DNA of 64,000 nucleotides, taken from assembly GCF_050320075.1 (NCBI RefSeq), contig NZ_CP190018.1. The stretch is one strand, 5' to 3'. The position numbers and the translations under genes were made by a program. Positions 30,755 to 59,932 of this stretch are shown piece after piece. This DNA comes from Escherichia coli (GTDB lineage Bacteria > Pseudomonadota > Gammaproteobacteria > Enterobacterales > Enterobacteriaceae). Below the pieces are notes generated by a model. It made no database searches. It was not told the DNA's origin and was given only the letters and a program-made list of their open reading frames with translations. Each line of letters begins with the position of its first letter. The stretch's first letter is position 1.

Positions 30755-30842
30755 TAAAAAATAAGCCCGTGTAAGGGAGATTACACAGGCTAAGGAGGTG
30801 GTTCCTGGTACAGCTAGCATTTTATGGGTTATGTTTTTCAGC
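30755..30842 (-). ncRNA. cyaR: CyaR (RyeE) Hfq-dependent sRNA
   Basis: Reverse complement reads GCTGAAAAACATAACCCATAAAATGCTAGCTGTACCAGGAACCACCTCCTTAGCCTGTGTAATCTCCCTTACACGGGCTTATTTTTT, which matches my memory of E. coli CyaR; sits between yegQ and the ogr-type gene as in K-12. Confidence 0.7.
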
Positions 30843-30926
30843 GAAACGGATGATAACCTTAATAAATGCAGCTGTATGTGATCGGTTTCTAAGAATTTTC
30901 CATCCGGGAAAAATAATCGAAATTAA

Positions 30927-42500: not shown

Positions 42501-42648
42501 CCACTTCCGGCAGCGCCGAAACGGGCAGGGCGCGATAACCGATAATCCCGGCGAGTAAGATCGCCACCATCAGCAGCGTGGTGGCGACAGGACGCATAAT
42601 AAACAGGCGAGACGGGCCGCCTGTGCTGCTCGGGGGTAACACCTGCAT
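39526..42648 (-). CDS. mdtB: RND multidrug efflux permease MdtB
   Basis: 1040 aa RND transporter, paralogous to the downstream mdtC. Confidence 0.9.
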
Positions 42649-43895
42649 CAGGAGCGTGCTCCTTTTTTCGCGTATTCGCGGCTGGTGGCTTTCTCTTCTG
42701 GAGTGGTGGCGCTCTGGGCTTCCACCACTTCCACTTTCGCCCCTTCGGTCAGGCGATCAATGCCGTCTGTCACCACGCGATCGCCCGCAGAAATACCTGC
42801 ACGGATCACCACTTTCTGACTGTCCTGAATGCCCGGCGTCACCAGATGTTTGCTGACCTTGTTTTCACTATTCAGCACCCAGACAAAATGGCCTTCATTG
42901 CCCATTTGCAGGGCGGCTGATGGGATCACTACGGCGTTTTGTTCGGTGTCGACTAACATGCGCGCGTTAACAAACTGATTGGGAAACAGCGCATCATCCT
43001 GATTATTAAAGCGTGCTTTCACTTTAATCGTACCGGTTGTGGCATCGATTTGGTTATCGAGGCTTAACAGCGTGCCTTCACTTAATTTCTTCGAGTTGGT
43101 GCGATCCCAGGCTTCTACCACCAGCGGTTTTCCGGCTTTCTGCGCCTGCACGACGGTAGCGATATCGCTTTCCGGCAGGGTAAAGAGCAAATCGATAGGA
43201 TGCGTCTGGGTGATCACCACGATCCCGGTGGTATCACCACTGGAGATTTGGTTACCAACATCAACCTGCTTGAGACCAACGCGACCATCGACTGGTGCGG
43301 TGATGCGGCTCCAGTCGAGTTGCAGCTGCGCGCTGGCGACGCTTGCTTCATCAGCCTTAATGGTGCCTTCGGTTTCACTGACCAGCGCCTGTTGGGCATC
43401 CAGCTCCTGACGGGATACGAGATTGGTTTTTGCCAGTTGCTGATAACGCGCCAGGTCACGGCGGGCGTTAGCAAGCGTGGCTTTATCTTTTGCCAGTTGG
43501 CCCTGGGCTTGTGCTAATGCAACTTTGAACTGGCTGGGGTCAATTTCTGCCAGTAAATCGCCTGCTTTGACCTGCTGGCCTTCCTGGAAATGTAACGCCA
43601 TCAGTTGACCGTCCACGCGGCTGCGCACCGTAACAGTATTAGCGGCGGTAATGGTGCCAAGCCCGGTGAGGTAACGCGGAACTGCCTGTTCTACGGCGGT
43701 CGCCGCCTGAACCGGGGCTAATGGGCCGGAACGCATACCACGGCGACCACTCGCTGGCGATTGCTGCGCTTGTTTCGTCGCCCCTGGGGCTGCACTCCGG
43801 GAGTCATTGCGGCCTTGCCAGAACCAGAATGCGGCGATGGCGGCGATAACCACCACGATTACGATTACCCAACGGGATTTATAACTGCCTTTCAT
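42648..43895 (-). CDS. mdtA: RND efflux membrane-fusion (periplasmic adaptor) protein MdtA
   Basis: 415 aa from MKGSYKSRW...; track ORF over-extended upstream to 44042. Confidence 0.9.
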
Positions 43896-44109
43896 CGTTA
43901 AGAGTTTCTCTTCCTGAAACGTTTCGCGGAATGATACTAGTGTAGCCAGCCAATAAGGGAGAAAAATGGAGGAATTATGAAACACTGTCTGGAATCGTCT
44001 GAATGACGGGCACATTTGCGAGCACGCATCCAGTAATAACACAGGAAACTATTTTATCTACGCGTTAGCGATAGACTGCTTGCATGGCGAAAGGAGGTAA
44101 GCCGAAGAT

Positions 44110-44260
44110 TTCAGCGGGACGCTGAAACGGGAAAGCCCCTCCCGAGGAAGGGGCCTTAAATAAGGAAAGGGTCATGATGAAGCTACTCATCATCGTGGTG
44201 CTCTTAGTCATAAGCTTCCCCGCTTACTAAGACTACCAGGGCGGGGGAAACCCCGCTCTA
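44110..44260 (-). ncRNA. sibB: Sib antisense sRNA antitoxin overlapping ibsB (approximate ends)
   Basis: Known Ibs/Sib type I toxin-antitoxin arrangement; hairpin plus U-tract on minus strand upstream of the ibs start; ends not determined. Confidence 0.45.
44174..44230 (+). CDS. ibsB: Type I toxin Ibs (18 aa hydrophobic peptide MMKLLIIVVLLVISFPAY)
   Basis: Peptide read directly; one of two tandem homologous ~240-bp units between mdtA and yegL. Confidence 0.75.
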   Translation: MMKLLIIVVLLVISFPAY

Positions 44261-44439
44261 CCCTCACTCCTGAAAGTATGCCTTCACGATAAGATTGTCA
44301 ATCTGCAGGCTTTGCAGTCTGCGATCCTGCCAGCAAATATTCTTTGCGAGTCGTTACGCAATAATCACACTTGAAACTATTTTATCCGCAAGTCAGCGAT
44401 AGACTGCATTCAGGGCGAAAGGAGGTAAGCCGACGATTT

Positions 44440-44595
44440 CAGCGGGACGCTAAAACGGGGAACCCTCTCCCGGAGAAGAGGGCTTTTAAATAAGGAAAGG
44501 GTTATGATGAAGCACGTCATCATACTGGTGATACTCTTAGTGATTAGCTTCCAGGCTTACTAAGAACACCAGGGGGAGGGGGAAACCTCTCCCTA
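44440..44595 (-). ncRNA. sibA: Sib antisense sRNA antitoxin overlapping ibsA (approximate ends)
   Basis: As for sibB. Confidence 0.45.
44504..44563 (+). CDS. ibsA: Type I toxin Ibs (19 aa MMKHVIILVILLVISFQAY)
   Basis: Peptide read directly; second tandem unit. Confidence 0.75.
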   Translation: MMKHVIILVILLVISFQAY

Positions 44596-44783
44596 ACCCT
44601 CACTCCTGAAATTATGTCACTCCGCCCTTAGTGTCAATCGACGGCTCTCCGTTCTTGCGAGGCGAATAGCAAAATTTTCTGCGCCGCCGGGCCTAATTCT
44701 GAAAGTTTCTTCGTTTGCTCTTATTTCATTATTGCAATCGGTATGATACCGGACCTCAATAATTCTCTAAGAAAGGATTTCTT

Positions 44784-45443
44784 ATGAGCGAACAAATCAC
44801 GTTTGCCACCAGCGATTTTGCCAGTAACCCGGAACCACGTTGCCCCTGCATTTTGCTGCTGGATGTTTCTGGTTCGATGAACGGTAGACCCATTAATGAA
44901 CTTAACGCCGGATTGATTACCTTTCGCGATGAGCTGCTTGCCGACCCGCTGGCCTTAAAAAGAGTGGAACTTGGTATTGTGACGTTCGGCCCGGTGCATG
45001 TGGAACAACCCTTTACCAGCGCCGCTAATTTTTTCCCGCCCATCCTGTTTGCCCAGGGCGATACACCAATGGGTGCCGCCATTACCAAAGCCCTGGATAT
45101 GGTAGAGGAGCGGAAACGTGAGTATCGTGCAAATGGTATTTCGTATTATCGCCCGTGGATTTTCCTGATCACCGATGGCGCTCCAACCGATGAGTGGCAG
45201 GCTGCCGCCAACAAAGTGTTTCAGGGGGAAGAAGATAAGAAGTTTGCCTTCTTTTCCATCGGTGTTCAGGGGGCGGATATGAAGACGCTGGCCCAAATCA
45301 GCGTCCGTCAGCCTTTGTCTCTGCAGGGATTACAATTCCGCGAACTGTTTAGCTGGTTATCCAGTTCACTGCGTTCGGTTTCCCGCTCCACGCCGGGAAC
45401 GGAAGTTGTGCTGGAAGCGCCAAAAGGCTGGACGTCAGTGTGA
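44784..45443 (+). CDS. yegL: von Willebrand factor A domain protein YegL
   Basis: 219 aa with MIDAS-type motif LLLDVSGSM; synteny. Confidence 0.85.
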
Positions 45444-59452: not shown

Positions 59453-59920
59453 AGTAAGTACAAAACCTATTCGTTGTATGACAAATGTCACAATTCGATC
59501 ATGGATAAATCAGGGCAAAAATGCAATGTTGCGGCACTATTTATCTCACATTATTTGAGGTTTATAACCTCACATTATCCCTGAATTAAAAGTGGTAATA
59601 ATAAAACATTATTTAAGAAATATCACATGTGGAGACACTATATTAAATATTGTCAACCTAAAGAAACTCCTAAAAACCATATTGAATGACACTTAATATA
59701 ATTCTTAAAAATAGCCAATTACCGAATTGTTACCTTGCCTGCTATTCCGTTAGCTGTAACACTTCCTCCTGCATTATTGGAGAGCCAATATTCAATTACC
59801 ATAATGTCACCTTATATTCGGAAGTTAATTTCCGTAATAACCCTTTCTCATCAACGACTGCATGTTGAGAGGGTTTTAAAAATTAAACTAAATCAGTGTA
59901 TTGGTAGCTAAAAAGCCAGG

Positions 59921-59932
59921 GGCGGTAGCGTG
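59921..59932 (+). promoter_or_regulatory. ops element (GGCGGTAGCGTG) within the JUMPstart region upstream of wza, RfaH-dependent antitermination site
   Basis: Exact ops consensus read in sequence about 180 nt upstream of wza. Confidence 0.65.

Follow-up and report, generated by a model that had tools for sequence, protein, structure and literature searches.

Two homologous units between mdtA and yegL

In the 64,000-nucleotide stretch of E. coli DNA analysed here (the window), mdtA lies on the minus strand up to position 43895 and yegL starts on the plus strand at position 44784, both genes being annotated in a 100%-identical genome and in K-12 MG1655. The intergenic span between them is 888 bp long and contains two homologous units. 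The protein encoded by mdtA starts with MKGSYKSRW and corresponds to MdtA, of 415 aa. A longest-ORF call for this gene (42648-44042, minus strand, GTG at 44042) was dropped for the ATG at 43895, from which the 415-aa protein of K-12 is obtained; the GTG-initiated ORF would span the mdtA promoter region and reach into the first unit. Upstream of mdtA we also noticed TTTTTCTCCCTTATTGGC at 43949-43966 (minus strand), one mismatch away from TTTTTCTCCATDATTGGC, which we take to be the BaeR box consensus. The window has no other site of this kind, although at least one match occurred in 16 of 100 shuffles.

Unit 1 (44031-44303), which adjoins mdtA, is the ibsB/sibB module and unit 2 (44359-44639), which adjoins yegL, is the ibsA/sibA module, each having been delimited by homology to the other. 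The direct-repeat families show a start-to-start spacing of 328-336 bp, and the longest ungapped repeat copy is 143 nt with 80% identity. When compared with the opposite K-12 unit, the window units gave 83-86% identity over 258-259 columns (blastn E values of 1e-60 to 1e-71). The homology of the two units is far above chance. An earlier note on this DNA had described two homologous units of about 240 bp between mdtA and yegL. Their number, homology and place are borne out by the repeat alignment, the K-12 cross-matches and the annotation of the flanks, but the units are longer, at about 270 bp with the period given above. Likewise, the interval of 44050-44620 assigned to them is at the right place but clips about 19 bp of unit 1 as well as the sibA -35 box (44632-44637).

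Identity between units 1 and 2 amounts to 86% in the region upstream of the Sib 3' end, 68% in the hairpin, 93% in the Shine-Dalgarno region, 78% in the ORF, 66% in the region 3' of the ORF and 68% in the sib promoter, the upstream stretch being more alike between the units than the ORFs (86% vs 78%). The spacer that separates the units (44304-44358) is non-homologous between them, with 38% identity (segment 44304-44350), and contains TTTGCGAG at 44343-44350. This (T)TTGCGAG motif, also present at 44015-44022 and 44654-44661, flanks each unit and recurs after unit 2. The ibs ATG follows some 155-160 nt downstream of it. No consistent promoter spacing results, and a conserved form, TTTGCG(A/T)G, precedes each of the five K-12 ibs genes.

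Each unit encodes a short hydrophobic Ibs peptide

On the plus strand, unit 1 contains an ORF of 18 amino acids plus stop at 44174-44230 (ibsB, MMKLLIIVVLLVISFPAY) and unit 2 an ORF of 19 amino acids plus stop at 44504-44563 (ibsA, MMKHVIILVILLVISFQAY), which are identical to K-12 IbsB and IbsA, respectively. Both ORFs open with ATGATG. The peptides are hydrophobic, with GRAVY values of 2.34 for IbsB and 1.98 for IbsA, and both matched the Pfam family PF13956 (Ibs_toxin) over profile positions 1-19 of 19, with scores of 42.7 and 50.2 bits, respectively, against a cut-off of 27, the queries having been lengthened by 2-3 upstream codons to reach the 20-residue minimum. The K-12 identity, the Pfam matches and the GRAVY values thus confirm the hydrophobic Ibs peptide of 18-19 aa that the earlier note had attributed to each unit.

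The Shine-Dalgarno region AAGGAAAGGG is found on the plus strand at 44162-44171 for ibsB and at 44492-44501 for ibsA. It stops 2 nt before the ATG in ibs units, and a G+C-rich hairpin also precedes each ORF. The Shine-Dalgarno region of ibsB is complementary to the part of SibB equivalent to TRD2, a region defined for SibC (PMC2943612) and placed on ibsB by alignment.

The annotation of these ORFs differs with the source. In the 100%-identical genome, PGAP names one of them ibsA (toxin IbsA) and leaves the other as an unnamed Ibs family toxin, and the proteins WP_001386899.1 and WP_010723109.1 are the exact Ibs peptides. A search of the Ibs peptides against the NCBIfam HMMs returned no family at E<=1, and we assume that PGAP names these toxins through a rule other than an HMM; the missing NCBIfam match has no bearing on Pfam membership. 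The K-12 record describes IbsA as a 'toxic peptide' and IbsB as a 'putative toxic peptide'. Neither ORF is present in an ORF list built with a 20-aa threshold, because both are too short, and the view that an ORF-only annotation misses this locus holds for thresholds of that kind.

The opposite strand carries two Sib RNA genes

Projection of the K-12 ends by alignment places the sibB RNA (K-12 b4437) at 44130-44265 and the sibA RNA (K-12 b4436) at 44457-44601, both on the minus strand and of about 136 and 145 nt, respectively. The Rfam family RF00113 (SIB_RNA) was recovered at 44159-44301 (minus strand, 142 bits) and at 44489-44637 (minus strand, 149.5 bits), with model positions 1-147 covered in both cases and a gathering score of 56; the model begins at the sib -35 box TTGACA. 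No further Sib copies were found by the Rfam search of the 64-kb window. The same database places a CyaR/RyeE sRNA at 30759-30844 (minus strand, 100.7 bits) and a JUMPstart element at 59894-59932 (plus strand, 57.3 bits), and the 64-kb window contains no tRNA genes.

A custom sigma-70 scan predicted a promoter for each RNA on the minus strand. The sibB promoter (44273-44301) combines the -35 box TTGACA (44301-44296), a 17-nt spacer and the -10 box TACTTT (44278-44273), and the sibA promoter (44609-44637) combines TTGACA (44637-44632), a 17-nt spacer and TAATTT (44614-44609). The -35 box is perfect in both promoters. The predicted starts, 44266 and 44602, are at most 1 nt from the projected K-12 5' ends at 44265 and 44601. 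A stock promoter and terminator scan missed both sib promoters, TACTTT and TAATTT being excluded by its -10 criteria; both came from the relaxed custom scan, and the promoters and terminators proposed here are consensus-level predictions.

The predicted folds have energies of -62.5 kcal/mol for SibB (z -4.4) and -57.6 kcal/mol for SibA (z -4.6), and consist of a closing helix, three internal hairpins and a 3' G+C-rich terminator hairpin. An RNAalifold consensus of seven Sib sequences (the two window copies, K-12 SibC, SibD and SibE, and one from each of two other strains), which form a small and closely related sample, contains 38 pairs, and compensatory changes are seen at seven of these. On the ibs strand, several of its G-U pairs would read as C-A mismatches. 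The predicted sibB terminator hairpin lies at 44132-44157 (minus strand) and its helix is kept with compensatory changes in the seven Sib sequences; on the plus strand, it corresponds to the hairpin of the ibsB 5' UTR. The sibA terminator hairpin, also obtained by folding, lies at 44461-44484 (minus strand). A conserved hairpin upstream of the ORFs, reported previously, is therefore present, but it is the sib terminator of the other strand. Read on the plus strand at 44463-44491, the sibA hairpin followed by CTTTTAAATA scores as terminator-like, inside the ibsA 5' UTR and before the Shine-Dalgarno region, and could act bidirectionally to attenuate ibsA transcription; the T run of unit 1 is shorter.

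Each Sib RNA covers the toxin gene on the other strand. SibB covers the ibsB ORF (44174-44230) and its Shine-Dalgarno region, and SibA covers the ibsA ORF (44504-44563) and its Shine-Dalgarno region, start and stop codons being inside in both cases. By alignment, the equivalents of TRD1 and TRD2 fall at about 44202-44224 and 44158-44174 in SibB, and at about 44535-44557 and 44487-44503 in SibA, that is, in the more divergent segments of the repeats. The proposal that Sib RNA genes lie on the opposite strand is thus supported by Rfam, by the K-12 annotation and by the promoter and terminator predictions. No Sib RNA genes are listed at this locus in the RefSeq record of strain BHUCD01, which uses PGAP-style product names.

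These complete gene signals on both strands bear on whether the repeats are merely structural intergenic elements devoid of gene function, as could be imagined from their history: according to the citation of Rudd (1999) in PMC8309996, they were initially recognised as nothing more than repeated intergenic sequences, the 'QUAD' repeats. We give this reading next to no credence, as transcripts (PMC5389530) and dsRNA (PMC7373196) are documented in K-12 and the reading is refuted by what has been published on expression and toxicity in the family.

Putative ibs promoters and the conserved upstream DNA

Neither the stock nor the custom scan found a good sigma-70 promoter for ibs on the plus strand of either unit. 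[quoted passage not shown] (PMC2943612), and the ibsC mRNA is 159 nt long and projects 18 nt beyond the 3' end of SibC (PMC2943612). Applying this 18-nt overhang, the K-12 ibsC start lies 7 nt after TACGAT, with TTGTGT about 17 nt upstream of the hexamer, and the ibsD start is placed after AACAAT, with TTGCGT 17 nt upstream. The window units retain the sequence CAGC..GGGCTGAAACGGGAAAGCCCC that runs from +1 onward. By homology with ibsC and ibsD alone, a weak ibsB promoter may be placed at 44080-44112 (plus strand), with a -35 box TTGCAT at 44080-44085, a -10 box GAAGAT at 44104-44109 and a start near 44112, and the ibsA -10 box and start at 44431-44440 (plus strand), with GACGAT at 44431-44436 and a start near 44439-44440. 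The proposed ibs -35 boxes are poor and located within a variable stretch. In K-12 RNA-seq, SibA and SibB are abundant, while hardly any ibsA or ibsB transcript is detected (PMC5389530). The weak putative starts fit with these scarce transcripts and with the lack of a good sigma-70 promoter in the scans.

Given these starts, the ibs 5' UTR would be about 62 nt long, and most of the conserved 'leader' (44031-44111) is probably promoter or upstream DNA that is not transcribed. The conserved upstream leader of the earlier note is thus upheld as to its conservation (86%), but homology with the ibsC and ibsD starts speaks against a transcribed leader for most of its length.

Two blocks of this upstream DNA, AGCGATAGACT and CGAAAGGAGGTAAGCCGA, at 44067-44077 and 44088-44105, show no variation among the eight copies compared and are absent from ibsC, ibsD and ibsE; CGAAAGGAGGTAAGCCGA includes AAGGAGGT, a perfect Shine-Dalgarno-like sequence. 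About 22 nt (GGCGAAAGGAGGTAAGCCGA[A/C]GATT) at 44088-44109 and 44415-44436, which include AAGGAGGT and are likewise invariant in the eight copies, are specific to the A/B units and missing from K-12 ibsC, ibsD and ibsE. By homology, this segment would fall between the putative ibs -35 and -10 boxes. It is doubtful, though conceivable, that the upstream blocks are more than flanking DNA copied along with the units and belong to a longer ibsA/B primary transcript, as a translation-controlling leader comparable to those of zorO, tisB or hok, or form a regulator-binding site; in the latter case, they would give ibsA and ibsB an induction signal of their own. Sigma-54 (TTGCA at 44080-44084) and sigma-E readings, considered by eye, were rejected, since the partner elements do not occur and unit 2 has lost the motif. 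After AAGGAGGT, a small ORF was looked for and discarded, as no ATG, GTG or TTG is found at a usable distance, just an ATT and five codons.

Conservation in K-12 and variation among E. coli strains

The strain is not K-12, with 96.35% identity to MG1655 over 3.78 kb. The gene order mdtB-mdtA / ibsB / ibsA / yegL-pphC is shared with K-12, in which sibA/ibsA (b4436/b4667) and sibB/ibsB (b4437/b4668) have the same flanks, order, orientation, peptides and Sib promoters. Alignment with the K-12 sibA/sibB-ibsA/ibsB loci, suggested by the earlier note, hence confirmed the similarity, the identity of the peptides and the synteny. The intergenic region differs from that of K-12 at 19 positions (18 substitutions and one 1-nt indel), none of which falls in the ibs ORFs or sib promoters. 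SibB carries a single substitution (44156), and SibA two substitutions (44460 and 44463) and a 1-nt indel (44488). Eight of the 19 differences are found within 25 bp upstream of ibsA (44370-44394), and others cluster at 44434-44488, in the ibsA 5' region. Position 3 of both putative ibs -10 hexamers (44106 and 44434) differs from K-12.

Among 5426 complete E. coli genomes, a match was found in 5419, and at least 80% of the region was matched in 5254. Most matches show 90-99% identity and only 22-23 complete-genome records reach at least 99% identity to the intergenic allele, so that the exact allele of the window is uncommon. Strains L73, 2452, PF9285 and F11 are 100% identical over 891 bp (43900-44790). 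The median number of matching places per genome is three, in agreement with the three K-12 loci. Eight matching places in this survey are on plasmids.

Complete E. coli genomes carry between one and three units at the mdtA-yegL locus. The copy-number alleles compared were L005 (NZ_CP077540.1, 401-1338), L006 (NZ_CP148268.1, 701-974) and the window (44031-44639). In an O111:H8 strain, three units are present and the middle one combines a unit-2-type upstream region with an IbsB body; this extra copy encodes MMKWIIIVVLLVISFPAY. A canine isolate has a single unit, made of the unit-1 upstream region, an IbsB-like ORF and a unit-2-type sib promoter. Because of these hybrid units, the one- and three-copy alleles look like the reciprocal products of unequal crossing-over. 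The hybrids show how such arrays expand and contract, and agree with earlier statements that the repeat number is variable. In the upstream patch at 44370-44394, K-12 unit 2 resembles unit 1 (..ACGCGTTAGCG), whereas the window and the O111 strain share ..CGCAAGTCAGCG, a distribution which suggests patchy gene conversion between the tandem units.

Since some E. coli have a single unit here, one of the two units of the window, most plausibly ibsB/sibB, might be a decaying or silent duplicate whose RNA is perhaps made but whose peptide is no working toxin or is never expressed. The cautious label of IbsB in the K-12 record and the nearly undetectable transcripts would fit with such a duplicate, and loss of sibA is tolerated although ibsA is present (PMC2943612). 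However, the unit has an intact ORF, Shine-Dalgarno region, sib promoter and terminator, all counted as identical to K-12, the IbsB peptide is unchanged in the distant O111 strain, its Pfam score is well over the cut-off, and SibB is not only abundant (PMC5389530) but also binds ProQ in vivo (PMC7192607). We consider a silent duplicate unlikely.

Proposed function of the modules

Taken together, these results indicate, with a probability that we estimate at about 0.96, that the elements are the E. coli chromosomal type I toxin-antitoxin modules ibsB/sibB and ibsA/sibA at their usual place between mdtA and yegL. The characterisation of the QUAD/SIB repeats as Ibs/Sib type I toxin-antitoxin modules dates from 2008-2010. 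Our assignment is based on sequence anatomy, family membership, synteny and near-identity to K-12; expression, repression, toxicity and binding by RNase III and ProQ are taken from the K-12 and Salmonella literature. No sequence feature contradicting the Ibs/Sib reading was found in the window. As the earlier note had said, the locus is a known feature of E. coli. It is annotated in K-12, Rfam and Pfam.

In the proposed mechanism, each unit would produce, from the plus strand, a weakly transcribed ibs mRNA of about 155-165 nt encoding a hydrophobic inner-membrane peptide of 18-19 aa. On the opposite strand, a sigma-70 promoter that is strong and close to the consensus would yield a Sib RNA of about 136-145 nt, the full complement of the ibs Shine-Dalgarno region, of the whole ORF and of the 3' part of the mRNA; in this family, Sib spans the entire functional ibs mRNA. 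Sib would be abundant and the ibs mRNA scarce. The first contact between the two RNAs would take place through two variable regions, TRD1, which faces the ORF, and TRD2, which faces the translation initiation region, after which pairing would spread. As translation would then be blocked and the duplex exposed to RNase III, no toxin would be made. SibC was found to recognise ibsC through TRD1 and TRD2 before pairing spreads (PMC2943612), and ibsA/sibA dsRNA was recovered from E. coli by p19 capture of RNase III products (PMC7373196). Excess Ibs would depolarise the membrane, lower ATP and stop growth. Overproduced IbsC depolarises the membrane within minutes (PMC8309996), and the Salmonella Ibs peptide binds subunits a and b of the Fo part of ATP synthase, inhibits Fo and lowers ATP (bioRxiv 10.1101/2025.05.26.656083).

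The two units appear to have diverged most in their recognition regions, which would limit cross-talk between the paralogues. In K-12, repression is restricted to cognate pairs, with the exception of ibsA, which is apparently controlled by other Sib RNAs as well (PMC2943612). This last observation, and the fact that Sib RNAs are abundant ligands of ProQ (PMC7192607), a protein whose dependent sRNAs can work in trans, might be taken to mean that the main action of Sib RNAs is in trans, on unrelated mRNAs, and that the ibs ORFs are incidental. Such a role seems very improbable to us as the main one: the peptide sequences of the ORFs are conserved among paralogues and strains, whereas the nucleotides around them vary, and cognate repression of Ibs toxicity by Sib has been demonstrated experimentally for the family (PMC2943612, PMC8309996). 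In practical terms, the locus can serve as an annotation check, its toxin ORFs being under the usual ORF-length thresholds.

Comparison with known type I systems

Besides K-12 sibA/ibsA and sibB/ibsB, the closest known systems include the K-12 paralogues sibC/ibsC, sibD/ibsD and sibE/ibsE, located at fau-serA and yqiK-hldE, which share the 19-aa ORF, the Shine-Dalgarno region, the fully overlapping antisense RNA and the Sib consensus structure. They differ from the A/B units in the ORF and in the loop regions (TRD1/TRD2), which have diverged, and in having no insert of about 22 nt just upstream of the putative ibs start; farther upstream, the sequences are unrelated except for the TTTGCGAG motif. 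In Salmonella Typhimurium, ibsA/sibA likewise consists of a 19-aa Ibs peptide and an overlapping SibA RNA, and this ibsA is bacteriostatic and lowers ATP via the Fo subunits a and b, a target seen for the Salmonella peptide. The Salmonella module is however single-copy and lies at the yqiK-hldE locus, a position equivalent to that of E. coli ibsD/E, so that Salmonella ibsA is not the orthologue of E. coli ibsA despite its name. Among other E. coli type I toxin-antitoxin systems, ldr/rdl is likewise chromosomal and tandemly arranged in one intergenic region, with a small hydrophobic toxin and a cis-encoded antisense RNA, but its toxin belongs to an unrelated 35-aa family and Rdl overlaps the 5' UTR and not the entire mRNA.
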